Assembly: GCA_016206945.1 (NCBI GenBank)
Contig: JACQQP010000172.1
Span: 1 to 46,422 of the forward strand
Origin: Candidatus Omnitrophota bacterium
GTDB lineage: Bacteria; Omnitrophota; Omnitrophia; Omnitrophales; Danuiimicrobiaceae
Direction of reading: 5' to 3'
Length of the DNA: 46,422 bases
Positions within the stretch are counted from its first letter, which is position 1; the number at the start of each line of letters is the position of its first letter. Positions 271-46,422 of the stretch are shown piece by piece. Both the position numbers and the translations under genes were made by a program. The notes under the pieces are model-generated. The model saw nothing but the letters and a program-made list of their open reading frames with translations, did no database searches and had not been told where the DNA came from.

Positions 271-450
271 CGTCATTGCGAGGAGTCCCATATGGGACGA
301 CGCCGCTTGTCCGAGCGCCGGTCGGGCGCTTGGTCTTGCGGTGCCGTACGGTCGGTACGGCGAAGCAATCTCAGACCTGCCTGCCGGCAAGCCAGGGATT
401 GCTTCGCTTCGCCCCGTATCATAATTTACGGGGCTTCGCTCGCAATGACG
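271..450. repeat. GC-rich multi-hairpin palindromic element (candidate structured RNA or REP/MITE-like repeat)
   Basis: A perfect 12-bp closing inverted repeat pairs CGTCATTGCGAG (271-282) with CTCGCAATGACG (439-450). Inside are five hairpins: 285-298 (GTCCCATATGGGAC), 314-319/325-330, 344-349/355-360, 361-370/398-407 (10 bp) and 411-418/427-434. It is visibly more GC-rich than its flanks. Only spurious ORFs cross it. Confidence 0.6.
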
Positions 451-5018: not shown

Positions 5019-7156
5019 GAATCGCGCAGATTTTACCTGCACTCAATGTGGGTGGAGTTGAGACGGGCACCGTTGATTTAGCCAAGGCGCTGAAGAAACG
5101 GGGTGACGAGCCTTTTGTGATCTCAAATGGGGGACCTTTGGTGGATGAGCTTGTTAAAGCGGGGATTTCTCATTTGACACTCCCCGTACATCGTAAGTCC
5201 CTTACCTCTCTTTCCTTAGTACGCCAAATTCAGGCATTTATTGAACGGGAGCGTATTGATATCCTTCATGCGAGGAGTCGCATTCCCGCTTGGCTCGCCT
5301 ATCTCGCCGTGAGGCGAACCAATTGTGACTTCGTGACGACCTGTCACGGTTATTACTCTAAACATTTTTTCAGCCGTGTCATGGGATGGGGAAAAAAGGT
5401 GATCGTGATTTCTCATTCCATTGGACGGCGGATGATTGACGATTTTGGCGTGCCTCCCGAACGCATTCGATTAATTCATCGAGGTGTCGATCTCGCCCAT
5501 TACCCTTTTTCGGCCGACAAATACAAGAAGCCGAAATCAGGACCGTTTCGTATTATTAATGTTGGGCGAATCACACCCATTAAAGGTCATGGAGATTTTA
5601 TCCGGGCGGTTCATCTTCTTTCAAAACGAATTCACAATTTAGAAGTTTCAATCGTGGGCACGCCTGATGACGATAAGGTTTCCTATTTCCGCAATTTAAA
5701 ACTGATGGTCGAAAGGCTGGGCTTGGGATCGCAGGTGAAGTTTTTAGGAACTCGCCGTGACGTGCCCCAACTCCTGCAATCAGCAGACCTCCTGGTTCTT
5801 CCTTCCAGAATTCCCGAGGCCTTCGGGCGTGTTTTGATTGAGGCGGGTGCAGTAGGAACGGTGGCGATCGCCTCTCGAATCGGGGGGATTTTGGATGTCA
5901 TTGATGAAGGTGAAAACGGTCTTTTGTTTTCCCCAGAGAATTTTGAGGAGATGGCGACTTTGATGGAGAAGATTTTGTTGGACCGCTTGCTCGCGAGAAA
6001 ATTATCTTCCAATCTTCGCAGGAAAGTAGAGCATGAATTTTCGCTCGATCAAATGGTTGAGAAAACGAGTGACGTTTATCGGGAAGTGAAACAGCAAAAA
6101 CGAATTTTGATTACGAAGCTGGGCGCTGTGGGTGATTTGGTACTTGCGACTCCGAGTTTTAGAATGGTGAGAAAACGTTTTCCAAACGCACATATTTCGC
6201 TTTTGGTGGATCCAAAATTGATTCCCTTGGTCCAACGTTGTCCCTATTTTGATGAGATCATTGCCTACAATCGTTCCCACTACTCAGATCAGTGGCAGCG
6301 TTTGTTTAAGTTGAGTAAACGGTTGAGACGATGGGGTTTTGATCTATCGATCGACTTCCAGAACAATTGGAGAACCCATGCGCTTGCGTTCTTAGCAGGC
6401 GTTCCAAAGCGGTATGGTTATAAAAGGGGAATCGCTGGTTTCCTGCTCACTCACCCCGTCGTCTTTTGGGACAGAAGTCTCAGTCCTGTGGAGCATCAAT
6501 TTCAAGTGCTCAAAAGGGCTGGAGTCATCCAATTTGAGAATGCGATCGAACTTTGGCCGGATTCAGAAGCGGATGCTCACATATCAAAACAACTGAGAGA
6601 AGCAAAAAATGGTGCGGCCCCTATTCGCATCGGATTGGTTTTAGGGGCTAGTCCACGCTGGCCAACGAAACAGTGGCCTGTGGAACGTTTTGTGGAACTG
6701 TCCAAGCGCTTAAGGGACGAATTGGATTGTCAGATTGTCTTGATCGGGCGAGAAGAAGACGAGAGTCTGGCACGTGTGTTTAAGCGAGATCATCTAAAGG
6801 GCATTCTCAACTTGACGGGAAAAACGAGTCTGCCGCAATTGGTCAGCCTCGTTAAACAACTTGATCTTTTGGTAACCGGGGACACGGCGCCCCTGCATAT
6901 GGCAAGTGCGTTCGATACAAAAACGGTCGCTTTATTTGGTCCCACAGAACCCAAACGTCATATGCCGCCGGGAGAGGGCCATATCGCTCTTGTGAAACGG
7001 ATTCCCTGTCAGCCTTGCTACAGCGGAACGTGCCGAAATTCGATAAAGCTCCTTTGCCTCAAGGAAATTAGTGTGGACGAAGTTTTTGAAACGATTAAAC
7101 AACAACTTCAGTTGGCAGGGGCTCGGCCTCTCGGCTCAAGCCAGGTGATGGGATAA
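5012..7156 (+). CDS. Fusion of a GT4 glycosyltransferase (N-terminal) with a GT9 heptosyltransferase-family domain (C-terminal)
   Basis: Residues 1-360 look like group-1 GT (GGVETGTVDLAKAL, EAFGRVLIEAGAVGT, ENGLLF). From residue ~365 the protein shows GT9 signatures: KRILITKLGAVGDLVLATPSF, TGDTAPLHMASA and LFGPT. Confidence 0.85.
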   Translation: MLRIAQILPALNVGGVETGTVDLAKALKKRGDEPFVISNGGPLVDELVKAGISHLTLPVHRKSLTSLSLVRQIQAFIERERIDILHARSRIPAWLAYLAVRRTNCDFVTTCHGYYSKHFFSRVMGWGKKVIVISHSIGRRMIDDFGVPPERIRLIHRGVDLAHYPFSADKYKKPKSGPFRIINVGRITPIKGHGDFIRAVHLLSKRIHNLEVSIVGTPDDDKVSYFRNLKLMVERLGLGSQVKFLGTRRDVPQLLQSADLLVLPSRIPEAFGRVLIEAGAVGTVAIASRIGGILDVIDEGENGLLFSPENFEEMATLMEKILLDRLLARKLSSNLRRKVEHEFSLDQMVEKTSDVYREVKQQKRILITKLGAVGDLVLATPSFRMVRKRFPNAHISLLVDPKLIPLVQRCPYFDEIIAYNRSHYSDQWQRLFKLSKRLRRWGFDLSIDFQNNWRTHALAFLAGVPKRYGYKRGIAGFLLTHPVVFWDRSLSPVEHQFQVLKRAGVIQFENAIELWPDSEADAHISKQLREAKNGAAPIRIGLVLGASPRWPTKQWPVERFVELSKRLRDELDCQIVLIGREEDESLARVFKRDHLKGILNLTGKTSLPQLVSLVKQLDLLVTGDTAPLHMASAFDTKTVALFGPTEPKRHMPPGEGHIALVKRIPCQPCYSGTCRNSIKLLCLKEISVDEVFETIKQQLQLAGARPLGSSQVMG

Positions 7157-7209
7157 AAGAGCGCTTTGCTTTGATATTAAGCGCTCTTTTAAACGAGGTG
7201 GTGGGATGA
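7153..7209 (+). repeat. Short SD-box cassette G (hairpin flanked by a direct duplication of the SD box)
   Basis: AGGTGATGGGAT (7143-7154, containing the upstream stop TAA 7154-7156) and AGGTGGTGGGAT (7196-7207, followed by ATG 7206) flank a 10-bp hairpin, AAAAGAGCGC 7155-7164 / GCGCTCTTTT 7181-7190. The right part resembles 19566-19595. Confidence 0.5.
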
Positions 7210-8222
7210 ATATTGCGGTCTTTACGAAGAATTGGTTGGGGGATGTCATTTTTGAAACGCCTGCCATTCGCGCCATTAAGGAAAATTTTCCTGAATCCCA
7301 TTTGATCGCCGTTACGCCTCGACGCTGTGTAGAACTTTTGGAGTTCAATCCTTACGTTGATGAAATCATTGCTTTTGATGAAAAGGAAGATGATAGGAGT
7401 ATGGTTTCGAAATTGAGACTCATTCTTACCTTAAGAAAGCGGAACATTGACAGGGCTTACTTATTTCACCGTTCTTCGACGCGTGCACGGATTGCCTGGC
7501 TGGGTGGAGCGCGTGAGCGGATTGGGTACCAGGTGAAAGGAGGGTCTTTTTTGACGCGCGCCATTCCCGAACAGGAAGGGCCTGTTCATGACGTTCAGTA
7601 TTTTATGGATTTGGTTCGGAACTCCGGCCTTAAAGTAAATGGAGAATATGCTTATGAATTTTATTTTGGGGAAGAAGACGAAGCGCGCGCCAGGTCTTTG
7701 CTTGCGGAATACGGACTTGATTCGGAACGGCTTGTGGCCATCAATCCAGGGGCCAACTGGCCGCCGAAGCGTTGGCCTGCTGAATACTTCCGCGAATTGG
7801 CCGATCGTCTCATCACGCGATACGACGTCCAGATTGTACTTACGGGCAGTGACGAAGATCAGCCCACAATTGAAAGTATTTTAAACTCCCATGATCGTGT
7901 GAACTTAGTTTCAGTCTGTGGAAAAACAACTATACGCCAGCTGGGTGCTTTGTTTTCCATCTGCCGCCTGGTCATTTCGAACGACACAGGTCCGCTTCAT
8001 ATTGCGGCAGGAGTCGGAGCGAACGTTATCGGTCTCTTTGGACCGACCCAACCATTGGAAACAGCTCCTTTGGGCCGCGGACGAAACATCATCATTCATT
8101 ATGCGCCTGAAGGGGTCCCATTGCCGTGGATCGGAAAGGATTTTCCTTCTCCTTGGATGGAACTGATTTCAGTGGAGGACGTATTCAAAGCGATCGAGCA
8201 GGAAAAATTGCTCTCATCATGA
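7206..8222 (+). CDS. GT9 glycosyltransferase (LPS heptosyltransferase family)
   Basis: The motifs NWLGDVIFETPAIRAIK, INPGANWPPKRWP, SNDTGPLHIAAGVG and LFGPT are the canonical GT9 pattern. The ATG follows the GGTGGTGGG box. Confidence 0.85.
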   Translation: MNIAVFTKNWLGDVIFETPAIRAIKENFPESHLIAVTPRRCVELLEFNPYVDEIIAFDEKEDDRSMVSKLRLILTLRKRNIDRAYLFHRSSTRARIAWLGGARERIGYQVKGGSFLTRAIPEQEGPVHDVQYFMDLVRNSGLKVNGEYAYEFYFGEEDEARARSLLAEYGLDSERLVAINPGANWPPKRWPAEYFRELADRLITRYDVQIVLTGSDEDQPTIESILNSHDRVNLVSVCGKTTIRQLGALFSICRLVISNDTGPLHIAAGVGANVIGLFGPTQPLETAPLGRGRNIIIHYAPEGVPLPWIGKDFPSPWMELISVEDVFKAIEQEKLLSS

Positions 8223-9208: not shown

Positions 9209-10247
9209 ATGCACCAACCTCAAGCGAATTTTAGTGACCCGTACGGATCGAATCGGTGATGTTGTTTTGTCGACGCCTGTTTTTCAGGCGGTCAAGGAAA
9301 GATATCCTGAGAGCCATCTTGCGGCCCTTGTCCTTAAAGAAACGGAGGCCGTTGTTCGCGGCAATCCCTCGCTGAACCAAGTGATTGTCTATGACAAAAA
9401 AGGACATGAGAAAAGCTGGTGGCGAAGCTTTTTATTTGGTGTCAGATTAAGAAAAGAGAACTTTGACATTGTGATTCACCTTCACCCCACGAACCGGGTT
9501 CATTTCATTTCGTGGCTTGCCAACATTCCCGTTCGCATCGGTTATCGGCGAAAAAACCATTATCTTCTCACTCATGTTATTGAAGAGAAAAAGTGGGAAG
9601 GAAGAAAACACGAAGCCGAATACAATTTTGATCTCCTCGCGTTGATTGATGTTTCCAAACCTGAGGAACTTGAGCTTTATTTCCCGCTGCAGGATAAAGA
9701 TCGTGAACTGTTGATGAACGTGTTGCCTTCGGGTTTTAATGGGAATCATTACGTCGTGTTTCATCCGAGTGCCAGTTGTATTTCGAAAAGGTGGTCTCCT
9801 GAACGATTGGCAAACGTGGCGGACCGCTTGGTGCAAAATTATGGCGTGCGAGCCGTTATTGTTGGGGAAGGAGCGGGGACTTTACATGCCGCACAAATGC
9901 AGAAATTTATGAGGAAAGAAGCGCTTAATTTGGGGGGAAAACTAAATCTGGGCATGCTCGCTTGGCTTTTGAAGGGTGCGCGGCTTTTGATTTCCAATGA
10001 TTCAGGACCTGTTCATGTTGCCTCTGCGGTGGGAACGCCTGTGATTTCAATTTTCGGCAGGAATCAACCTGGTCTAGGCACGACGCGTTGGAGGCCCATT
10101 TCGCCAAACAGTTCTTTCCTTCAAAAAGATGTCGGATGCATTGAATGTCTCGCCCATAATTGTCAAATTGATTTCAAATGCCTTAAAGACTTACAAGTAG
10201 AAGAAGTGCTTGAGGAAGCGAAGCGGTATGAGCCATTTTTGGTTTAG
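9192..10247 (+). CDS. GT9 glycosyltransferase (LPS heptosyltransferase family)
   Basis: Motifs are RILVTRTDRIGDVVLSTPVFQAVK, SNDSGPVHVASAVG and IFG. It overlaps the upstream gene by 17 nt. Confidence 0.85.
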   Translation: MMRPIECTNLKRILVTRTDRIGDVVLSTPVFQAVKERYPESHLAALVLKETEAVVRGNPSLNQVIVYDKKGHEKSWWRSFLFGVRLRKENFDIVIHLHPTNRVHFISWLANIPVRIGYRRKNHYLLTHVIEEKKWEGRKHEAEYNFDLLALIDVSKPEELELYFPLQDKDRELLMNVLPSGFNGNHYVVFHPSASCISKRWSPERLANVADRLVQNYGVRAVIVGEGAGTLHAAQMQKFMRKEALNLGGKLNLGMLAWLLKGARLLISNDSGPVHVASAVGTPVISIFGRNQPGLGTTRWRPISPNSSFLQKDVGCIECLAHNCQIDFKCLKDLQVEEVLEEAKRYEPFLV

Positions 10248-11393: not shown

Positions 11394-12212
11394 ATGAAAT
11401 TAAGCAACTATTTCTTTTTGATCTTCCTGTTTTTTTCGTCGGTAGGTTTTCAAGGATGTGGCGGAGTCAAAACTCAGAAATTAAATCTGGTTGCCAATGA
11501 GGTCAAGAGTCAGATTGTCGGGAATGCACCTTTTACGATTCAAGAAGGGGAGAAGCTTCGGTTTAGCGTTCGGTGGCTTGGCATGGAAGTGGGCACCGCT
11601 GAAGCAGTGGTCAAAGGAATTGAGAAAGTCAACGGGCGGGACGCCTATCATATTGCGGCTTATGCCCGCTCGAACTCCTTGATCGACCTGATTTATCCGG
11701 TTCGTGATGAGCACCATACCTATGTGGACACGGAACATTTTCATTCGCTCCGCTACGAAAAAATTCTCCGGGAGGGAACTTTTCGTGCTGACGAAGTGAT
11801 GGAATACGATCAGGAAAATCATACCGCAACCTATTTCTCGAGGAAGAATAAAACCAAGAAAAAAATGTTTATTGCAAAGAACACCCATGACCAGGTTTCC
11901 GCCGCCTATTGGTTTCGTACGCAGCCGATGAAGATAGGAGATAGGATTCATATTCCTGTCGAAGCTGACGAGAAAAATTGGGATTTAGAAGTTCGCGTGA
12001 CTCAAATGGATCGGGTTGAAATCAAAGGACTGGGGACTTTTGATGCATTTCAAATCGAACCGATGGCCAGTTTTCAAGGAATTTTTATTCGACGCGGAAA
12101 AATCCGCGGCTGGTTGGGAACTGACGAAAAACGACTTCCCCTGATGATGAAAACTAAAGTCCCTGTTCTTGGGACAGTTACTGTTGTATTAACTCGTTAT
12201 GAGGGTTGGTAG
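11394..12212 (+). CDS. DUF3108-like lipoprotein
   Basis: A signal peptide with the lipobox FQGC is present (MKLSNYFFLIFLFFSSVGFQGCGG). The stretch GEKLRFSVRWLGMEVGTAEAVV...YPVRDEH fits the DUF3108 pattern as I recall it. Confidence 0.65.
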   Translation: MKLSNYFFLIFLFFSSVGFQGCGGVKTQKLNLVANEVKSQIVGNAPFTIQEGEKLRFSVRWLGMEVGTAEAVVKGIEKVNGRDAYHIAAYARSNSLIDLIYPVRDEHHTYVDTEHFHSLRYEKILREGTFRADEVMEYDQENHTATYFSRKNKTKKKMFIAKNTHDQVSAAYWFRTQPMKIGDRIHIPVEADEKNWDLEVRVTQMDRVEIKGLGTFDAFQIEPMASFQGIFIRRGKIRGWLGTDEKRLPLMMKTKVPVLGTVTVVLTRYEGW

Positions 12213-16584: not shown

Positions 16585-17434
16585 TATTATTTTCGGCGAT
16601 CCAAACCAGTTTGTGTTCATTGCGGGGCCCTGTGTCATCGAAGGAGAAGAGAGCACACTTCGGCATGCCGAGCGAATTTCTAGGATGGTACAAGAACTCA
16701 ATATTCCTTATGTGTTTAAGTCGAGTTACGACAAAGCGAATCGTTCTTCAATCCATTCTTATCGAGGTCCTGGAATTGAGGACGGACTTAAGATTCTTGC
16801 GAAAGTAAAGAAGGAATTTCAAATTCCTGTTTTAAGCGATGTCCATACCGTTGAGGAGGTCGACCGAGCGGCCGAAGTACTCGACATTCTTCAAGTGCCT
16901 GCCTTTCTTTCCCGCCAAACAGATCTCGTCGTTGCCTGTGCAAAGACTCGAAAAATCGTGAATGTGAAAAAAGGACAATTTCTTTCTCCATGGGACATGA
17001 AGAATGTCGTTGAAAAGATTGAGTCGGTTGGAAACAAAAATATTTTATTAACCGAGAGAGGCGCTTCCTTTGGTTATCGGAATTTAGTCAGCGATTTCCG
17101 GTCGATTCCAATTATGCAAGGTTTTGGTTATCCCGTTGTTTTTGATGTGACTCACTCGGTTCAAATCCCGGGCGGTTTAGGACATGCTTCGGGAGGGCAA
17201 GCCGAATTTATTCCTACGTTGGCACGATGTGCCGTTGCGGCCGGGGTGGACGCCGTTTTCATGGAGGTTCATGAAAATCCCAAGGTCGCCAAATCGGATG
17301 GGCCCAATAATTTAGCGCTTTCTGATTTAAAAGATATTCTTCAAGTTTTGAAACGGATTCGTGCAGCAGCACCTTTAGTCAGAGAAGAAACTTCGAAAAG
17401 GAAGCGTTCACTCAAAAAAACGGTGACGGTGTGA
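16562..17434 (+). CDS. kdsA: 3-deoxy-8-phosphooctulonate synthase (Kdo-8-P synthase)
   Basis: The start is at ATG 16562 (MKQVRLGN), inside the track ORF 16526. Motifs are [20 protein letters not shown] and FDVTHSVQ. It has a basic C-terminal tail. Confidence 0.9.
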
Positions 17435-17442
17435 TGGGATGA
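17428..17442 (+). promoter_or_regulatory. Extended SD + start box GGTGTGATGGGATGA (native junction, no cassette)
   Basis: The kdsA stop TGA lies at 17432-17434 inside the box. ATG 17439 starts kdsD. The GTGATGGGATGA core matches 1776-1787. Confidence 0.6.
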
Positions 17443-18404: not shown

Positions 18405-19345
18405 GCAAGACAAGGAAACACCGATTTCTGCTCTACCTTGGTCTTGAAGTGATCAGACACATTGTCTTGGTGCTGCCAAGGTGGCTCAATTTGGCGATCG
18501 CGCGAGCTCTTGGCTTTGCAACCTTCTGGGTTCTTCCCAAGGAACGAGCCAAGACGGTGCGCCATTTGAAGGAAGCTTTTGGCGATGAAAAAACTGAGAG
18601 CGAACTTCGGAAAATCGGCGAGAAGGTTTTTATTCATTTGACTCAGTCTGCAATTGACGTCCTTTGTTTCCCGCGGCTCAATCGTAAGCGCGTAGAGCGC
18701 CTTGTTGATTTGGAGGGCGGCACTGAAAGGCTAGATCGTGCGCTGGCGCGCGGAAATGGCGTGATCGCATTGACAGGTCACATTGGAAACTGGGAACTCT
18801 TGGCTTCGTATTTTCGATTTCTGGGCTATCCAGGACGCTTGGTAGGTCGAAGGATTTATTACGAGCGGTTCGATCAGGTACTAGTTTCGCTTAGAAAGAG
18901 TGCTCTTGTCTCGACCCTTTATCGGGATGAATCTCCACGCCAGGTCTTGGCCGAACTTCGAGCGAACCATGTCGTGGGAATGTCTGCCGACCAGGACATT
19001 GATAGCGTGGAGGGAGTTTTTGTTCCTTTTTTTGGAAAATGGGCTTGGACACCGACAGGTCCAGCAAAAATCGCATTGGCCAGCGGGGCAGCTATTGTTC
19101 CAGCCTTTATGCTTCACGATCGGAATCGATACCGATTATTCATTGAAGAACCTATTTGGCCCGTTGAAAGCGTTTCAAAGGAAAAAGCGATCGGCATGAT
19201 GACGGAGGCTTGGTCTCGAGTCGTTGAAAGTTACATTCGACGTTATCCAGATCAATGGGTTTGGATGCACCGCCGCTGGAAAACCCAGGCGGACGTTGCC
19301 GATCGCTTTAGGGATGCATCAGAACTACAAGAAGTAAAGTTATGA
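18401..19345 (+). CDS. Lipid A biosynthesis late acyltransferase (LpxL/HtrB family)
   Basis: The LTGHIGNWE catalytic motif and the RYPDQWVWMHRRWK C-terminal motif are present. The GTG start overlaps the kdsD stop (GTGTGA). Confidence 0.85.
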   Translation: MSKTRKHRFLLYLGLEVIRHIVLVLPRWLNLAIARALGFATFWVLPKERAKTVRHLKEAFGDEKTESELRKIGEKVFIHLTQSAIDVLCFPRLNRKRVERLVDLEGGTERLDRALARGNGVIALTGHIGNWELLASYFRFLGYPGRLVGRRIYYERFDQVLVSLRKSALVSTLYRDESPRQVLAELRANHVVGMSADQDIDSVEGVFVPFFGKWAWTPTGPAKIALASGAAIVPAFMLHDRNRYRLFIEEPIWPVESVSKEKAIGMMTEAWSRVVESYIRRYPDQWVWMHRRWKTQADVADRFRDASELQEVKL

Positions 19346-19467
19346 TCCCATCTGAAAGAAGAGAACAGAGAACGGTGTACAGAGTACAGAAGATTAGGTC
19401 CCGTTCTTTTTTACTCTGTTCTCTGTACTCTGTTCTCTGTACTCTGTTTCTAGAGGTGATGGGATGA
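19342..19467 (+). repeat. SD-box cassette C (family I, 126 nt) with a 41-codon ATGA-to-ATGA mini-ORF
   Basis: ATG 19342 overlaps the upstream stop (ATGA), and it ends GAGGTGATGGGATGA. The interior has heptamer arrays, ACAGAGW on one arm (about 19364-19391) and the complementary WCTCTGT x5 (19413-19447). It aligns without gaps, at about 80% identity, with 22856-22981. Confidence 0.8.
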
Positions 19468-19595
19468 TCCCAACCACCTGTTTTTCTCGCGTTTCATTCA
19501 GGTGGTTGAACTTTGAAACGCGAGAATTTCTTTCAGAAATTAAAGGCCGCATTAACTTAAAACGAGGCGTTCTTTTAAAACAGGTGGTGGGATGA
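19464..19595 (+). repeat. SD-box cassette F (family III-like, 132 nt) with a 43-codon ATGA-to-ATGA mini-ORF
   Basis: It starts ATGATCCCAACCACCTGTTT and ends AAACAGGTGGTGGGATGA. ATG 19464 overlaps the stop of cassette C, and its own TGA overlaps the lptC ATG 19592. Interleaved inverted repeats are present: 19471-80/19499-508 and 19484-96/19514-26. Confidence 0.65.
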
Positions 19596-21793: not shown

Positions 21794-22738
21794 ATGCCAT
21801 ATCTTTCCGTACAGAACTTTTTTGATGGAATGAGGGAGCAGCTGAAGTTAAGCTTGCTTACCCCGACGGTTCCCTTAACTCGTAAGATTCGTTCGCCGGA
21901 AATTCATCGGCCCGGCCTCGCTTTTTCTGGTTTTTACGATTATTTTGCTTTTGATTGTGTGCAGATTCTTGGCACGACAGAAATTGGTTTTTTAAAAAAA
22001 TTGTTGGGTCCCGCGCGCGCCCGGAATTTAAAACGATTCTTCTCCTATCGGATTCCTTGCGTCATTGTTTCGAAACAGCAATCCGTCCCGCGTGATTTTT
22101 TGGAACAGGCCATTGAGGCGGCCATTCCTGTTCTGCGTTCACCCTTTCGAACCGCGCGCGTAGCAAGTCAAGTGACGCTTTTCATTGAAGAAGCAAATGC
22201 CCCCGAGACGAGCATTCACGCAACGCTCGTGGATGTGTATGGAGTGGGTGCGCTCCTTCTTGGGAAAAGTGGTGTGGGGAAATCGGAATGTGCGCTTGAG
22301 CTTGTGGAAAGGGGCCACCGCTTAGTCGCAGACGATATGGTTGAAATTCGCGTAGAAAATCGGATTCTTATGGGACGGTCGAATCGGATTCTACATCATC
22401 ACATGGAAATTAGGGGGCTCGGAATCATCGACGTTCGCGCCATCTTTGGGGTCGGTTCCGTTCGGAATTCTAAACGGATCACTTTAGCGGTAACGCTCGA
22501 ACATTGGAAAAAAGAACGTGAGTATGAACGGCTTGGTCTTGAAGATAGGATGTATGAGCTCTTGGGCATCAAGATACCGCACCTGATCATCCCCGTCCGT
22601 CCCGGCCGTAACATCCCTATATTGGTTGAAACGGCAGCTTTGACTCAGCGGCTCAGTACGATGGGTGCTCATCCAGCAAAGGAATTTAATCAGAAGTTAA
22701 TTGACACGATGCGCGTTTCCAAACCGGAGACAGATTAA
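21794..22738 (+). CDS. hprK: HPr kinase/phosphorylase
   Basis: The P-loop GKSGVGKSECALEL, the LVADD motif and the EIRGLGIIDV signature are present. Confidence 0.9.
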   Translation: MPYLSVQNFFDGMREQLKLSLLTPTVPLTRKIRSPEIHRPGLAFSGFYDYFAFDCVQILGTTEIGFLKKLLGPARARNLKRFFSYRIPCVIVSKQQSVPRDFLEQAIEAAIPVLRSPFRTARVASQVTLFIEEANAPETSIHATLVDVYGVGALLLGKSGVGKSECALELVERGHRLVADDMVEIRVENRILMGRSNRILHHHMEIRGLGIIDVRAIFGVGSVRNSKRITLAVTLEHWKKEREYERLGLEDRMYELLGIKIPHLIIPVRPGRNIPILVETAALTQRLSTMGAHPAKEFNQKLIDTMRVSKPETD

Positions 22739-22741
22739 TTG

Positions 22742-22859
22742 ATGATTCCATCACCTGTTTGCAAAGAGCGCGCATTTGGTTCTAAACATCACGCGCTCTT
22801 TGATCCTTTAAGAAAAGATCTCGCCACAACGTGGCGAGACAAACAGGTGATTGGGATGA
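22742..22859 (+). repeat. SD-box cassette E (family III-like, 118 nt)
   Basis: It starts ATGATTCCATCACCTGTTT and ends AAACAGGTGATTGGGATGA. The 13-bp terminal inverted repeat is interrupted by one extra T. Internal hairpins lie at 22762-72/22792-802 (11 bp) and 22819-25/22833-39 (7 bp). Confidence 0.65.
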
Positions 22860-22981
22860 TCCCATCTGAAAGAAGAGAACAGAGTACAGAGTACAGAGAA
22901 CAGAAGGTGAGTTTCCATTCTTTTTTACTCTGTTCTCTGTCATCAGTACTCTGTAATGTTTTCCTTCAGGTGGTGACATGA
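22856..22981 (+). repeat. SD-box cassette D (family I, 126 nt)
   Basis: It has the same length and frame as 19342-19467. It encodes MIPSERREQSTEYREQKVSFHSFLLCSLSSVLCNVFLQVVT, and its TGA overlaps the yvcK-like ATG 22978. Because of the extra T in cassette E, E and D read as a single 79-codon ORF. Confidence 0.8.
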
Positions 22982-24225
22982 AGTTTTTCCGATGGCTTTA
23001 TCCAGGAATCGGGATTAAACGATGGGTCGTTTTGGCCGCTTTTGGACTTGGCATCATGGTGATTGTGGGCCTTTCTGCGGTGAAGACGATTGCACAACAC
23101 AGCGTCCTTTTGGCAAGTTTTGCCACCGCTTTTCTCATTTTTGGAATTTTTTTGGTTTACACGTCACTTAAAAATGTGGTTCGCATTTTCGTTCGTGCAC
23201 TTATGCCAGAGCCTGCGGAAGACTTGGCGAACATTGTGTATCAAAGTCGAAAGCGGGATTTTCTTGCTCGTGGACCTCGCGTGGTCACCATTGGCGGCGG
23301 CACCGGTTTGAGCGTTCTTCTCCAAGGAATTAAGGCCTATACTAATAACGTCACTGCCGTTGTCACCGTGACCGATACGGGCGGGAGTTCGGGGCGCCTG
23401 CGCGATGAGCTGGATATTCTGCCGCCGGGCGATATTCGCAACTGTCTTGTGGCGCTTGCCGATGCAGAACCGCTGATCCGGAACCTGTTTCAATATCGTT
23501 TTGAAGAGGGAGAAGGTCTTAAAGGACACAGTTTTGGAAACTTGTTCATCACGGCACTTTCCATGGTAACGGGTGACTTTGAAAAAGCGATCCGCGAATC
23601 GAGCAAGGTGCTTGCCATTCGGGGAAGAGTGTTGCCATCCACTCTGGATAAAGTAACGCTCGTAGGCGAATTTACCGATGGGACAACGGCTGAAGGAGAA
23701 ACAAATATCACGGACACAAGGAAACCGCTGAAGCAGATTTCGCTTCGCCCTGCCAATTGTCGCGCTGCAGACGAGGCGTTGGAAGCGATTGAAAGTGCAG
23801 ATCTTGTGATCATGGGGCCAGGGAGTCTTTATACGAGCATTCTCCCTAATCTTTTGATCCAGGATGTTTCGAATGCCATCTTGGAATCGGATGCATACAA
23901 GATTTTCATTATCAATGCGATGACCCAACCTGGTGAAACAGAAGGTTACACCGCTTACGACCACCTCCGCGTTTTGATCAGCCATACGGATCCCGGCATT
24001 GTCGACGCCTGTTTTATCAATACCCAATCCATTCCCAAGGCAATCCTGGAACGTTATCGCGAAACCAATGCGTACCCGGTTGAGGCTGATGTCGCAAAGA
24101 TTCGGGAACAAGGGTATGAGGTCATTGGCTGTGAGATTTTGAAACTGGATTCGCAAGTGAGGCACGATCCGGTGAAACTGGCCAAGGTTATTTTGGATCA
24201 ATATTTTGAAGTCCTGAAGCGGTAA
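22978..24225 (+). CDS. YvcK/CofD-like (UPF0052, gluconeogenesis factor family) protein with an N-terminal two-TM extension
   Basis: The core motif is VVTIGGGTGLSVLLQGIK...VVTVTDTGGSSGRLRDE...PPGDIRNCLVALAD. Residues ~16-63 form two hydrophobic helices that I do not recall in typical ~320-aa YvcK proteins. Confidence 0.85.
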   Translation: MKFFRWLYPGIGIKRWVVLAAFGLGIMVIVGLSAVKTIAQHSVLLASFATAFLIFGIFLVYTSLKNVVRIFVRALMPEPAEDLANIVYQSRKRDFLARGPRVVTIGGGTGLSVLLQGIKAYTNNVTAVVTVTDTGGSSGRLRDELDILPPGDIRNCLVALADAEPLIRNLFQYRFEEGEGLKGHSFGNLFITALSMVTGDFEKAIRESSKVLAIRGRVLPSTLDKVTLVGEFTDGTTAEGETNITDTRKPLKQISLRPANCRAADEALEAIESADLVIMGPGSLYTSILPNLLIQDVSNAILESDAYKIFIINAMTQPGETEGYTAYDHLRVLISHTDPGIVDACFINTQSIPKAILERYRETNAYPVEADVAKIREQGYEVIGCEILKLDSQVRHDPVKLAKVILDQYFEVLKR

Positions 24226-30787: not shown

Positions 30788-31882
30788 TCATTCATTAGCG
30801 CGGTCCAGGAAGAAGAACGTTCCAAAACCGAACATAAAATTGGGAGACCAAGTACTCAAAATAGGAAAAAGTTTTCCTGCTTTCCCAAGTGCGAGCAGAA
30901 TAGCGCCCGTAATGTGAAAGAGGAATACAAAGGCAAGACAAGTTAGTACGTTCAAGGCAATCATGCGGCGCCTTGTTGTTTTGGCTAAAAAGGGCACCGT
31001 CAGAAACATAACCACCAAACTTTGCCAGGGAAAGGCAAGTTTTTGATGGAGTGTAACCAACTCGGCATCTGCCTTGATTCCATTTTCCCTGAGTTTCGCA
31101 ATATACTCTTTTAGATCTCGGTAACTGATCGCAATTCCCTCGTTCACAGCTTTCAGGAAATCATTGGGCGTTTCGTTAATCTCTGGGTAAACAATCACGG
31201 CTTGAAACGTGGGTTCGCCCAGCATGTCGCCTTTCTGTTCTAGCGCGTAATCAGTCGCTTGGCGGAGTTCCCAGTGGGAGCCCATCCACTTGGCTTCGCG
31301 AGCCACGGTTTTCTTTTTTACGTTCCTTTTTGCGTCTAGCCAAAGGACAATAAAATCTTCGAACCGTTCTTCTTTTGCGTGGAAAACGCGCCCATAGTAA
31401 AGCCGGTTTTTACCGCCGTAGTAGGTGACGTTTGCGAATACCCCTCGTTTTTCATCCGTTTGCTTCTTTTCAATCCATTCGTTTAAGAGTTGTTCCGCTT
31501 TCCGCGAAGTGTTCGGCACGATTTGGTCGCTCACCAGGAAAGAAATGACGCCAACGACAAATCCAACGAAAATAATGGGTCGAATCATCGAAGTGATTTC
31601 TAAACCTGCAACCTTCATCGCAATGAGTTCGTTGTGGTAATTAAAAGTACTGAGGACATAGATGGTGGCAAGGAGACACGCCCATGGAATTATGGAAATG
31701 AAAGTTTGCGGTGTCAGGACCAAATAATACAGAAGAATATGGTGAAAAGCAGTTTTGTTTCGGATCATCGCGTCCAAGTAGTCAAAAATATCCGCCACGA
31801 ACACCAAGAGAATTAAAGTGACACAACAAAAAAAGATGGGAAATAAAAGCTGTTTTGCAAGATATCGGTCAAGAATCTTCAT
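30788..31882 (-). CDS. LPS export ABC transporter permease (LptF/LptG, YjgP/YjgQ family)
   Basis: MKILDRYLAKQLLFPIFF is the typical N-terminus of this family, and the protein has multiple TM segments with a large periplasmic loop. The start is placed at ATG 31882, immediately after GGAGGTGATGGG, rather than at the track's 31921. Confidence 0.85.
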   Translation of the reverse strand: MKILDRYLAKQLLFPIFFCCVTLILLVFVADIFDYLDAMIRNKTAFHHILLYYLVLTPQTFISIIPWACLLATIYVLSTFNYHNELIAMKVAGLEITSMIRPIIFVGFVVGVISFLVSDQIVPNTSRKAEQLLNEWIEKKQTDEKRGVFANVTYYGGKNRLYYGRVFHAKEERFEDFIVLWLDAKRNVKKKTVAREAKWMGSHWELRQATDYALEQKGDMLGEPTFQAVIVYPEINETPNDFLKAVNEGIAISYRDLKEYIAKLRENGIKADAELVTLHQKLAFPWQSLVVMFLTVPFLAKTTRRRMIALNVLTCLAFVFLFHITGAILLALGKAGKLFPILSTWSPNFMFGFGTFFFLDRANE

Positions 31883-32016
31883 CCCATCACCTCCACGGCA
31901 AGAGCGCGTTTTAAGAGGCAATCTTGCACTCTGAGTGAAGTGCGTTCTTGCATTTTCTTTGAAAATACGCCGCCCATCTTAAGAAAAGGCGGCGTACGGG
32001 GAGGTGATAGGATCAT
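31879..32016 (-). repeat. SD-box cassette A (family II, 138 nt) with an intact 45-codon ATGA-to-ATGA mini-ORF
   Basis: On the minus strand, ATGA (32016-32013) overlaps the comF stop. The left end is GATCCTATCACCTCC and the right end is GGAGGTGATGGGATGA, overlapping the lptF/G start. Two hairpins lie at 31966-74/31988-96 and 31898-907/31942-51. It aligns without gaps, at about 85% identity, with 42879-43016. Confidence 0.85.
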
Positions 32017-42878: not shown

Positions 42879-43016
42879 TTGATCCCATCACCTCCGCGTA
42901 CGCCGCCTCCTCTTAAGATGGGCGGCGTATGTTTGTAGAAAATGCAAGAGCACGCTTTATTCAGAGTGCAAGATTGCTTCTTTAAGCGTGCTCTTGCGGT
43001 AGAGGTGATGGGATGA
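42879..43016 (+). repeat. SD-box cassette B (family II, 138 nt), with its mini-ORF disrupted
   Basis: The left end is TTGATCCCATCACCTCC and the right end is AGAGGTGATGGGATGA, with ATG 43013 starting nadX. Hairpins lie at 42899-907/42921-29 (9 bp) and 42944-55/42986-97 (12 bp). It is the same length as 31879-32016, but has TTG in place of ATG and an in-frame TAG at 42936-38. Confidence 0.85.
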
Positions 43017-43828: not shown

Positions 43829-46422
43829 ATGGAAAGTCAAATTGTTATTCGCGGCGCTCGCGAACACAATCTCAAAAACATCAATCTTGAAATCCCGAGG
43901 AACCGATTAATCGTCGTCACGGGCCTTTCTGGTTCAGGGAAAAGTTCGCTTGCTTTCGATACACTCTATGCCGAAGGCCAGAGGCGTTATTTGGAAAGCC
44001 TCTCTTCCTACGCCCGTCAATTTCTGGAACGTCTTAAGAAACCTGACGTCGATTACATTTCAGGACTTTCCCCAAGCATTGCCATCGAGCAGCGCTCTAT
44101 TCCGCATAATCCTCGATCCACTGTAGCGACGGTAACTGAAATTTACGATTACTTAAGGCTTCTGTACGCGAAATTGGGGGAGGTATTTTGCAGCAAGTGC
44201 GGCGGCGCCGTTCAAAAACAAACGCTTAACCAAATCCTTGCACAAGTTCGGGCGATTCCAAATGGCGCACAGATCGGGATTTTCGCGCCACTCGTCCGCG
44301 GTCGGAAGGGCAAGTATCAAAAACTCTTTCGGGATATTCTGAAAAAAGGTTTTTCGCACGTCAGAGTGGATCGGAAAGTTCATGACCTTCATAAGCCCAT
44401 TAACATTTCTAAGTCGAAGCGCCATGACGTTGAGGTTTTAGTGGACACAGTCCAGGTTGCGCCGCAAAATTTAGACCGGATCAGGCGTTCTCTTGAAACC
44501 GCCTTGGAATTGGCCGACGGCACCTGTTTGATTAATGTGGTGGATGGAGAGGCACCTAGTCAAAAAAAGGAATTCTTTTTTTCCGAAAAAATGACCTGTC
44601 CGAAATGCGATATTAGTTTCAAGGATTTTGCTCCGAATATGTTTTCCTTCAATAGTCCTTACGGCGCTTGTGATCGATGCAAAGGGATCGGAAAACTTTC
44701 ACAGATCATAGCACATCAAGTGATTCGTCATCCCGAAAAACCGCTTCTCAAAGGCGCTATCAACGAAGAACTCTTTTTTTCTTTTAATCAATATGTGATC
44801 GAAGATCTCATTTATGAATTGAGGGAACATTTTGATTTTAGCTTTTCCACTCCGTACCGTGACCTTCCCGCTGAGGTCAAAGAGGCGCTCTTTTGGGGAA
44901 CGGATGAAATTACAGGACTTATTGAGGAATTAGAAGATCTTTTTTATTCTACTTCTTCTGAGGAAATCAAACGTAAGGTACGAAGATTTATTCGCGAGGA
45001 CGTGTGTCCGATGTGCCGCGGAATGCGCCTCAAATCGGAAGCGCTCGGAGTAAAAGTTAAAGGGAAGAACATTGTCGAAGTTTCGAGATGTTCCGTTGAA
45101 GAAGCTACGTCATTCTTTGATTCTCTTCGTTTCGAAGGAAGTGCAGAAAAGATATCGAGTCCTATTTTAAAGGAAATTCGTCAAAGGCTTCGCTTTCTTA
45201 ACAATGTTGGGTTAGGTTATCTGACGCTCGAGCGTTCCGTCACCAGTTTGGCAGGTGGAGAGCTTCAAAGGATTCGCCTTGCCGCGCAGATTGGCGTTGG
45301 TCTTGCAGGGGTCCTGTACGTTTTGGACGAGCCGAGCATTGGACTTCATCCGAAAGACAATCAAAAACTTTTGAATACGTTAATACAGCTTAGAGATATG
45401 AAAAATACCGTCATCGTCGTCGAGCACGATGAAGAGACGATGAGACGTGCTGATTATATTGTTGATTTAGGACCAGGCGCTGGTCAGGAAGGCGGCCAGA
45501 TCGTAGGACTAGGCGATGCCTCTCGGTTAAATGGATCCTCGCAGTCGCTGACAGGAAAATATCTTTCGGGGAAACTTTTCATTCAGTTACCGCACAAAAG
45601 GAACGATTACCGAAAGGCGAAAGCACTCCTCATAAAAGGGTGCCGTCAGCACAATCTCAAAGATATTGATGTTCAAATTCCGATGGGTTGCTTTGTCTGC
45701 GTAACTGGAGTGTCCGGATCGGGAAAAAGCACTCTGGTTCACGACATTTTGTTTAGGGCGCTTCACAATCGGCTCTGGAAGACCGACTACTCGGTAGGGA
45801 AATTCTCATCTATCTTAAATGTGGAGGAAATTGATAAAGTAATCGAGATTGATCAAGCGCCCATTGGCCGGACGCCGCGTTCCAATCCTGCGACCTATAC
45901 AGACCTTTTTACTTCCATTAGAAAGTTGTATGCGCAGACGAATGAAGCAAGGCTTAGAGATTTTAGTCCGTCTCGTTTCAGTTTTAATTTGAAGGGCGGC
46001 CGTTGTGAAATATGCCGAGGCGAAGGATATCAAAGGCTGGAGATGAGTTTTCTTCCAGATGTGTATATTTTGTGCGAGATCTGCCGCGGCGCGCGCTATA
46101 ACGAGCAGACATTGTTGGTGCGATATCGTGGTAAGAATATTGCCGAAGTATTGGAACTTTCTGTGAATGAAGCGCTCGATTTTTTTTCCTCAATCCCTTT
46201 AATTCGAGAACGGCTTCACATCCTGCATGAAATTGGACTTGGATATTTGAAACTGGGCCAGCCGTCCACAACGCTTTCTGGAGGGGAAGCGCAGCGCGTG
46301 AAATTAGCAAGTGAATTGGGCAAGAAAAGAACCGGGCGGACGCTTTATATTTTGGATGAGCCAACCACAGGCCTTCATTTTGCGGATATTGAGAATTTGT
46401 TGAAGGCCTTGTTCCGTTTACG
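43829..46422 (+). CDS. uvrA: Excinuclease ABC subunit A (3' end lies outside the window)
   Basis: It is not in the ORF track because it runs off the window edge. My hand translation from ATG 43829 stays open to the end of the window. It gives [54 protein letters not shown], CxxC zinc modules, [12 protein letters not shown], a second Walker [13 protein letters not shown] and [12 protein letters not shown]. Confidence 0.92.

Follow-up and report, generated by a model that had tools for sequence, protein, structure and literature searches.

A probable miniature transposable element insertion at the start codon of yvcK in an Omnitrophota operon

A 126-nt sequence at positions 22856–22981 (+ strand) of a 46,422-nt stretch of DNA from a Candidatus Omnitrophota bacterium (assembly GCA_016206945.1, contig JACQQP010000172.1; the whole stretch is called the window here, and positions are counted from its first letter) occupies the junction between hprK and yvcK. 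We put at roughly three in four the probability that this sequence, copy B of what we term family I, is the insertion of a non-autonomous element resembling a MITE (a miniature transposable element with inverted repeats), and that it belongs to a superfamily of an Omnitrophota subclade whose members rebuild a Shine–Dalgarno (SD) sequence and an ATGA motif at start codons. A better-preserved copy A lies 3.5 kb away in the same operon, at the lpxL-like/lptC junction (19342–19467, + strand, 126 nt). By sequence comparison, these elements form a repeat family with inverted ends and TGA flanks, with one nested 3-bp duplication and with precise insertion at start codons when set against empty orthologous sites; an SD–ATGA that is regenerated and a mini open reading frame (mini-ORF) that is kept open in one specific frame are read from the same comparisons. 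Taken together, the evidence supports family I being a dispersed element and not a leader, that is, a MITE with a start-codon strategy like that of the MIRUs (interspersed repetitive units) of mycobacteria.

Copies A and B align without gaps over the full 126 nt, with 104/126 positions identical (83%), and carry open frames in the same phase (ATG...TGA, 41 codons each). Their opening 29 nt, ATGATCCCATCTGAAAGAAGAGAACAGAG, are found at these two places and nowhere else in the window, and in none of 100 dinucleotide-preserving shuffles, and the central 23 nt, TTCTTTTTTACTCTGTTCTCTGT, are the same in both copies (19404–19426 and 22918–22940). Nine of the 22 mismatches fall in the first half and 13 in the second, and they are concentrated in the loop and the distal right arm: copy A retains GWACAGA heptamers on both arms, whereas on the right arm of copy B most are gone. 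An earlier, sequence-only reading of this DNA had proposed a second 126-nt copy in the same frame as 19342–19467, sharing its first 29 nt and centre and diverged in the loop and distal heptamers, and the alignment bears this out in full. The same reading had named, as the outcome that would undo it, a similarity confined to low-complexity heptamers; the non-repetitive termini and centre also match.

Copy B opens with ATGA, followed by the left terminal repeat TCCCATC (22860–22866), a left arm of GWACAGA heptamers (22877–22904) and a loop, and then by the conserved centre and right arm (22918–22940), a decayed distal right arm and a right box, CAGGTGGTGACATGA (22967–22981, + strand). The right terminal repeat is intact in copy A (AGAGGTGATGGGATGA), where the inverted ends ATCCCATC and GATGGGAT pair, and has decayed to GGTGGTGACA in copy B. 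Degenerate as it is, the right box of copy B still holds an SD-like AGGTGGTG, a 3-nt spacer and an ATGA in which the yvcK start overlaps the mini-ORF stop, as the sequence-only reading had noted. Throughout the superfamily, this overlap is what the design hinges on. The mini-ORF of copy A likewise runs from ATGA to ATGA, and the first of these is the lpxL stop. The gene directly downstream of copy B is yvcK, again as first read: ATG 22978, the insertion site, opens a CofD/YvcK protein of 415 aa (gene 22978–24225, + strand; Pfam PF01933, E 3e-111), and its YvcK-family homologues, which are named Candidatus Omnitrophota, are also 415 aa long and 69–94% identical.

Family I is one of several families that have their ends in common. 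All members read (A)TGA-TCCC(A/C)YCACC...GGTGRTGGGA-TGA around unrelated, hairpin-rich interiors, with lengths of 70–210 nt, and the terminal inverted repeats of the sister families pair over 10–16 nt with 0–1 mismatch. TGA stands on both sides of every element, and the elements sit within operons, at places where this TGA is part of a gene's start-codon ATGA.

We compared the same operon across related Omnitrophota loci (L003, L005, L007, L018–L020, L021, L023 and L025–L027). At lpxL/lptC a plain 4-nt ATGA overlap is present in L003, L005 and L007 (from sequence) and in L021 (from gene coordinates); L007 reads TTT-ATGA-TCCGAAAG where the window reads GTT-ATGA-(I)-(II)-TCCGCAAA. The hprK/yvcK site is empty in L005 (TAG-GC-ATGA-AATTT), in L007 (TAG-AAT-ATGA-AATTT) and in L021, whereas in the window a family II element and then copy B stand ahead of the ATG. 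At the comF-like/lptF/G junction, an ATGA overlap in L005 and a GTGA overlap in L003 contrast with a 138-nt family III element in the window. Where relatives are filled, the occupants differ. L003 has one 114-nt element ahead of yvcK, and in the closest relative (L018–L020, YvcK 94% identical) the yvcK ATG adjoins an element of the family II-A type and not family I. L023 (YvcK 85%) carries 210 nt of element before yvcK, its repeat being ATCCCCCACCACTTTC, and has three further junctions filled, and L025 (YvcK 76%) has a 180-nt composite at lpxL/lptC. No elements were found in the 20 kb examined of L026 and L027 (YvcK 73% and 70%), nor did blastn of family I against the L003–L007 loci return any copies. 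These filled and empty sites and their differing occupants mark copy B as an insertion specific to its lineage, at a site that has been hit repeatedly. L018, L019 and L020, three contigs from independent assemblies, each break off within the element that precedes yvcK. A repeat would be expected to cause such breaks, which suggests that superfamily repeats fragment Omnitrophota metagenome assemblies.

Each family I copy, with its stem of roughly 45 bp, folds as one long imperfect hairpin (−55.8 and −56.8 kcal/mol, z about −6; 0/200 shuffles folded as well), with arms made of GWACAGA and TCTGTWC heptamers. The hairpin is closed at its outer end by pairs between the left end (ATGA-TCCCATC...) and the right box; in the minimum-free-energy fold of copy B, 13/15 nt of the right box are paired to the element's left end, including the AU of the yvcK AUG. 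Such a stable hairpin masking a downstream SD and AUG, in an element that lies within an operon and is therefore co-transcribed, is also what would be seen if a locus-specific cis-regulatory RNA (a leader, attenuator, thermometer or RNase III site) had evolved in place for yvcK or lptC. However, the same 126-nt sequence precedes the unrelated genes lptC and yvcK and recurs at a third locus, both junctions are empty in close relatives, and the 94% relative has another element at its yvcK start. The RNA-feature scans point the same way: Rfam 15 gave 0 matches at the gathering score in the whole window, with only sub-threshold (eukaryotic) hairpin noise at E ≤ 1, and no + strand terminator-like site (T-run) was found within or after the family I hairpin at 22856–22981 or 19342–19467, the regional count being that expected from shuffles. 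A scan for promoters and terminators likewise found nothing above shuffle expectation. The filled/empty comparison largely refutes an in-place regulatory origin, which we regard as scarcely credible. The earlier argument that two unrelated junctions speak against a locus-specific leader is thereby strengthened, with support from the empty sites, the third copy, the other elements and the shared termini.

The window holds seven superfamily elements: two each of families I, II and III, and one that is truncated. All lie at operon junctions and are oriented like the downstream gene. Each family I copy adjoins an unrelated hairpin element of family II, with a single TGA common to the two (...GGGA-TGA-TCCC...). 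Family II element B (22742–22859, + strand), directly upstream of copy B, has the terminal repeats TTCCATCACCTGTTTG and CAAACAGGTGATTGGGA and two GC-rich hairpins inside. Its frame continues in phase into copy B to give an ORF of 79/80 codons, which may start at TTG 22739 or ATG 22742, ends at TGA 22979–22981 and is also called, as a 79-aa ORF, in public annotation. Family II element A (19464–19595, + strand), directly downstream of copy A, has a 43-codon mini-ORF, and lptC takes its start at 19592 from the right end of this element, GGTGGTGGGATGA. The truncated element is a right part of the II-A type between two glycosyltransferase genes (7144–7209, + strand); it too ends in GGTGGTGGGATGA, giving a start at 7206. 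The two family III copies, each of 138 nt, are identical at 118/138 positions. One (31879–32016, − strand) fills the comF-like/lptF/G junction, runs from ATGA to ATGA with the same termini and has an open mini-ORF of 45 codons; the other (42879–43016, + strand), at the junction of panD and an aspartate dehydrogenase gene, has TTGA as its left flank and one internal TAG, and is the sole element whose frame is broken.

The composite at lpxL/lptC in L025 (7581–7760, 180 nt) bears on how the elements insert. A 70-nt inner element (7590–7659) is nested in the left terminal repeat of an outer one, in the arrangement TCCCA-TCA-(inner)-TCA-CCTCC, and once the inner element and a single TCA are deleted, TCCCATCACCT is recovered, in agreement with the outer right repeat. 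The flanking triplet would thus be a 3-bp target duplication, TCA being TGA on the opposite strand. This nested site involves no start codon and therefore points, as a single case, to an intrinsic preference for TGA. The composite remains an open ORF of 59 codons, ATGA to ATGA. Nesting and head-to-tail pairs follow from the repeats themselves containing TGA (GG-TGA-TGGGA) and from insertions leaving TGA on both sides. In the mechanism that we propose, an element would insert at the TGA of a start-codon ATGA, duplicating 3 bp, and a second insertion into a flanking TGA would yield the head-to-tail pairs (I+II and II+I).

Family I is small (126 nt) and has no transposase gene, its only ORF being of 41 codons, and it shows the hallmarks of a MITE: terminal inverted repeats, target-site duplication, small size, dispersed copies, and filled and empty sites. 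Like MITEs, the elements would be mobilised by a transposase. We treat an IS5-family enzyme as a lead only, on the ground that elements of the IS1031 group recognise 3-nt sites (PMC2516522).

Insertion 3' of TGA without a true duplication, by a single-strand HUH/Y1 transposase (IS200/IS605-type or REP/RAYT-like) that recognises the hairpin, would suit an element that is a hairpin over its whole length, and the fixed trinucleotide on the left, with the same trinucleotide at the element's end, fits target-specific insertion of this kind. We consider it improbable nonetheless. The ends are true inverted repeats of 10–16 nt and not differing subterminal hairpins, and the nested L025 copy lies on the opposite strand between TCA and TCA, as expected of a staggered double-strand cut. 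The elements carry no GTAG or CGTC tag and are well above the 20–40 nt given for REP (PMC3733652), and no TnpA or RAYT gene was found in the loci examined.

The MITE-like insertion would also explain how the displaced genes stay whole. Read from its sequence, the right end ...GGTGRTGGG-A followed by the duplicated TGA becomes GGTGRTGGG-ATG-A, which provides an SD and a spacer, followed by a start codon that a stop overlaps. When the target TGA lies in a start-codon ATGA, the displaced gene receives an SD and an ATG from the element, and the old ATG, still in its former ribosome-binding context or stop/start overlap, then opens the mini-ORF, ATG-ATC-CCA..., into the element. Such an insertion would leave genes unbroken because the element's end carries exactly what the displaced gene loses.

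Read from the left ATG, the frame meets no stop before the right ATGA in 11/12 elements (10/11 measured elements and the L025 composite), as against 1–5 stops in each of the other two sense frames of the 11 measured elements and 6 and 2 in those of the composite. Element length is a multiple of three in 11/12, the exception being family II element B, which reads in phase into copy B. With shuffled interiors the probability of an open frame is 0.05–0.22 per element, which multiplied over nine independent interiors gives 10^-8.4. An open frame of 41 codons is also present in the third family I copy, which is fused in phase to an upstream element of 31 codons, and six further copies of family III, on six other contigs of the HY584 metagenome-assembled genome (MAG), are all exactly 45 codons long. 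One antisense frame is open in 7/11 elements, above the shuffle prediction. For family I we ascribe this to palindromy, as the antisense peptide (for example of 19342–19466, minus strand) mirrors the sense one (EYREQ..., CSLYSVLC). The idea that the antisense frame reflects function in both orientations was rejected: the open phase is not that which an inverted insertion would require.

A frame that is open in all three family I copies without indels, has a strong start context and is called as a gene in public annotation could instead be that of a duplicated small-protein gene, for instance one for a small hydrophobic peptide (...SFLLCSLYSVLCTLFL...). The peptide is not what is conserved, however. 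Between copies A and B, 13 codons differ non-synonymously and 5 synonymously, so that identity is 68% in amino acids compared with 83% in nucleotides; the antisense strand encodes a near-mirror peptide, as for a palindrome; the sister families retain the DNA termini only, with unrelated peptides; and searches of 5.8 billion and 1.84 billion proteins returned these copies and low-complexity noise only. We judge a small-protein gene to be very improbable.

What the open frame does is a separate matter, on which the folding and the frames together suggest a translational relay that reopens a start-masking hairpin. In the transcript, the anti-SD-like left end would pair with the new SD and AUG and mask them. 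Ribosomes coupled from the upstream gene would then translate the mini-ORF, melting the masking hairpin, and would terminate on the ATGA at which the real gene starts. At yvcK this relay would cover 79–80 codons, from just after the hprK stop through family II element B and copy B. Insertion would then be nearly neutral, and only copies with an open relay frame would survive at such sites. The fullest form of this proposal assigns three jobs to one 10–16-nt repeat, which would be the transposase site, the SD and start on the right (with the TGA duplication) and the anti-SD mask on the left; elements would survive only as translated relay cistrons, and expression of the displaced gene would depend on the relay. 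We advance this three-job reading tentatively, at a little under even odds.

The simpler alternative is a selfish MITE and nothing more, with the open frame and the SD–ATGA as side effects and no ribosome relay. It accommodates the tolerated broken-frame element at 42879–43016, the possibility that the good SD and ATG of the right end start translation by themselves if the hairpin breathes, and the part of the antisense open-frame signal that is a by-product of palindromy. It sits less well with a frame that is open in 11/12 elements whose length is a multiple of three in 11/12, against 1–6 stops in the other sense frames, and with pairing of the SD and AUG to the left end that would otherwise silence essential lipopolysaccharide (LPS)-transport genes (lptC, lptF/G). 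We therefore think it unlikely that the relay is absent altogether.

Several observations weigh against a mobile element with a selected relay frame. No transposase or autonomous partner with these repeats was found in the roughly 250 kb examined, and mobility is consequently argued from comparative anatomy only. Families that share nothing but their ends are unusual for simple copy-and-paste, and family I is rare, with three copies known. The TGA flanks and the nested case are also compatible with insertion 3' of TGA by an element that itself ends in TGA. The right end resembles native couplings, such as GGTGATGGGATGA at waaA/lpxK (1775–1787), where no left arm is present, and some of the similarity between ends could be convergent selection for a good SD–ATGA and not a transposase site. 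One element, 42879–43016, has a broken frame, and expression of the gene after it presumably continues. The tally of open family III copies is biased, as only open copies are called as genes.

Matches to GGTGATGGGATGA or GTGATGGGATGA are present at native-looking stop/start overlaps at 1775–1787 (waaA/lpxK) and 17430–17442 (kdsA/kdsD), and the right end of the elements may mimic this genome's own coupling junctions or descend from them. We rejected GTGATGGGATGA at kdsA/kdsD (17430) and waaA/lpxK (1775) as solo element ends since the left arm is absent, and in the case of kdsA/kdsD also because relatives have ordinary junctions there.

Copies of family I are few elsewhere. The genome-wide search that the sequence-only reading had proposed was carried out in part, and both collection scans gave chance matches only. 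The exact 19-mer ATCCCATCTGAAAGAAGAG matched twice among 185,579 species genomes (a Leptospirales MAG and Paenibacillus), in unrelated sequence, and the pattern CCATCTGAAAG-N35-63-TTTTTACTCTG matched ten times in JGI metagenomes, always in unrelated coding sequence. Plasmid and phage collections contained no family I match. At the peptide level, the search of 5.8 billion proteins and 1.84 billion representatives returned only the third copy, the window's own ORF through family II element B and copy B, and low-complexity noise. The third copy, MBI4358884.1 (P0121; HY584_06245), comes from an Omnitrophica MAG, where its contig is 16 kb long. All family III protein matches, on six other contigs, also carry HY584 locus tags, so that the window very probably comes from this same MAG. 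With at least three copies, family I is thus rare and restricted to a lineage. Two unrelated proteins with long SVLCTLY/YSVLCTV repeats (P0123 and P0126) also matched the family I peptide. These matches imply that tandem CTCTGTW heptamers or 21-nt repeats are translated in other organisms, and they look like low-complexity matches, not family I homologues.

Both family I copies lie in one operon, with the order kdsA, kdsD, lpxL-like, I, II, lptC/A, lptB, ptsN, hprK, II, I, yvcK and then ptsI. The gene upstream of the yvcK junction, hprK, spans 21794–22738 (+ strand) and stops at TAA 22736–22738. In relatives, yvcK and ptsI are separated by an HPr gene, and none is annotated there in the window. 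At the right edge, 43829–46422 contains a UvrA-like gene that runs off the end of the window, which is why no long ORF is listed there.

Other repeats were noted in passing. An inverted-repeat element of a different kind, with the ends CGTCATTGCGAGGAG...CTCGCAATGACG, occupies window positions 271–450 just before the likely true waaA start, where the listed 503-aa TTG ORF at 276 probably over-extends. The same type recurs in L023 at 9836–9980 and 11553–11636, nested there inside the element upstream of yvcK, and looks like a second, widespread repeat family. The HPr/ptsI junction of L018 (1655–1770; also in L019 and L020) holds yet another repeat family, with the ends ACCCCGTTAGATCTC and GAGATCTAACGGGGT and TGAA...TGAA flanks. 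Its right end gives GGGG-GTG-A, that is, a GTG start for ptsI; the start-codon logic is alike and the terminal repeat different, and its own frame stops after 13 codons. L025 has a near-perfect palindrome of roughly 80 nt between lptB and ptsN (9381–9488; CGTCGGTACCCGTTCCAAAAGTGCCGGG...CCCGGCACTTTTGGAACGGGTACCGACG), half of which recurs before yvcK at 9965–10000.

If copy B is such an insertion, a selfish element can colonise the most cramped sites of a compact genome, the overlapping stop and start codons of essential operons, without breaking them. The superfamily would account for annotation artefacts in Omnitrophota MAGs, namely hypothetical proteins of 35–80 aa that start with MIPS or MIPH and end in VMG, VVG or GGG, as well as for contig breaks just upstream of genes. 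A true relay would provide a natural construct set for translational coupling through long structured spacers. On the three-job reading of the repeat, expression of yvcK, lptC and lptF/G would depend on translation of the upstream gene through a relay of 40–80 codons, and the elements would be a natural system for termination–reinitiation and for selection for translatability in non-coding mobile DNA.

We found nothing in the literature on such elements in Omnitrophota or on start-codon MITEs. The bacterial MITEs ERIC/IRU, YPAL/RU-2, Correia/NEMIS and RUP (PMC2229807) are similar in size (about 100–200 bp) and in having terminal inverted repeats and a target-site duplication; they too form a long stem-loop in the transcript, are co-transcribed with their neighbours and often have a contiguous ORF. 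They differ in that they mostly duplicate TA, where the Omnitrophota elements duplicate TGA, and in that they sit in untranslated spacers or are fused in frame (PMC2229807). None is described as rebuilding an SD and ATGA, whereas the Omnitrophota element is its own mini-cistron with overlapping start and stop. Rickettsia palindromic elements (RPE; PMC2229807) are also palindromic mobile repeats that keep a frame open, so that insertion into translated sequence is tolerated, but they insert within genes for proteins and end up in the protein itself, unlike a separate mini-ORF between genes. The REP2 repeats of Neisseria and the IR repeats of Borrelia (PMC3184786) also carry a promoter and are without terminal inverted repeats; they do not serve as intercistronic relays, and no insertion signature is known for them. 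REP/BIME are defined as GC-rich palindromes of 20–40 nt, one end of which bears a GTAG or CGTC tag (PMC3733652); family I, by contrast, is 126 nt long with 40% G+C and ends TCCC.../...GGGA, and does not qualify as REP.

The closest parallel is with MIRUs, which PMC12548453, summarising Supply et al. 1997, presents as mobile repeats that insert at start codons and have an internal ORF coupled at −4 nt, and for which Delihas lists tetranucleotide direct repeats, filled and empty sites, imperfect inverted repeats and ORFs that overlap their neighbours (PMC3184786). Both are short repeats in polycistronic operons (40–100 bp for MIRUs, 70–210 nt in Omnitrophota), with apparent start-codon insertion, an internal ORF with −4 (ATGA-type) overlaps to its neighbours, short direct repeats where a site is filled and relatives in which it is empty, and both are thought to leave downstream expression nearly unchanged. 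The Omnitrophota elements would be a second case of the MIRU strategy, itself poorly understood, from another phylum and with transposon hallmarks that are cleaner (inverted repeats, a TGA duplication of 3 bp, and nesting), and, should the three-job reading hold, an independent and mechanistically clearer invention of it. The two occur in different phyla, Actinobacteria and Omnitrophota, and differ in G+C, and no sequence relation between them is expected. Whereas MIRUs form tandem arrays of the same unit (variable number tandem repeats), Omnitrophota arrays combine different families that share a TGA (I+II, II+I), and no tandem family I copies were found in the window or the L003–L007 loci. 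The Omnitrophota elements are further set apart by strong hairpins over their whole length, by clear terminal inverted repeats of 10–16 nt and by an SD and ATG that are encoded by the terminal repeat together with the target duplication.

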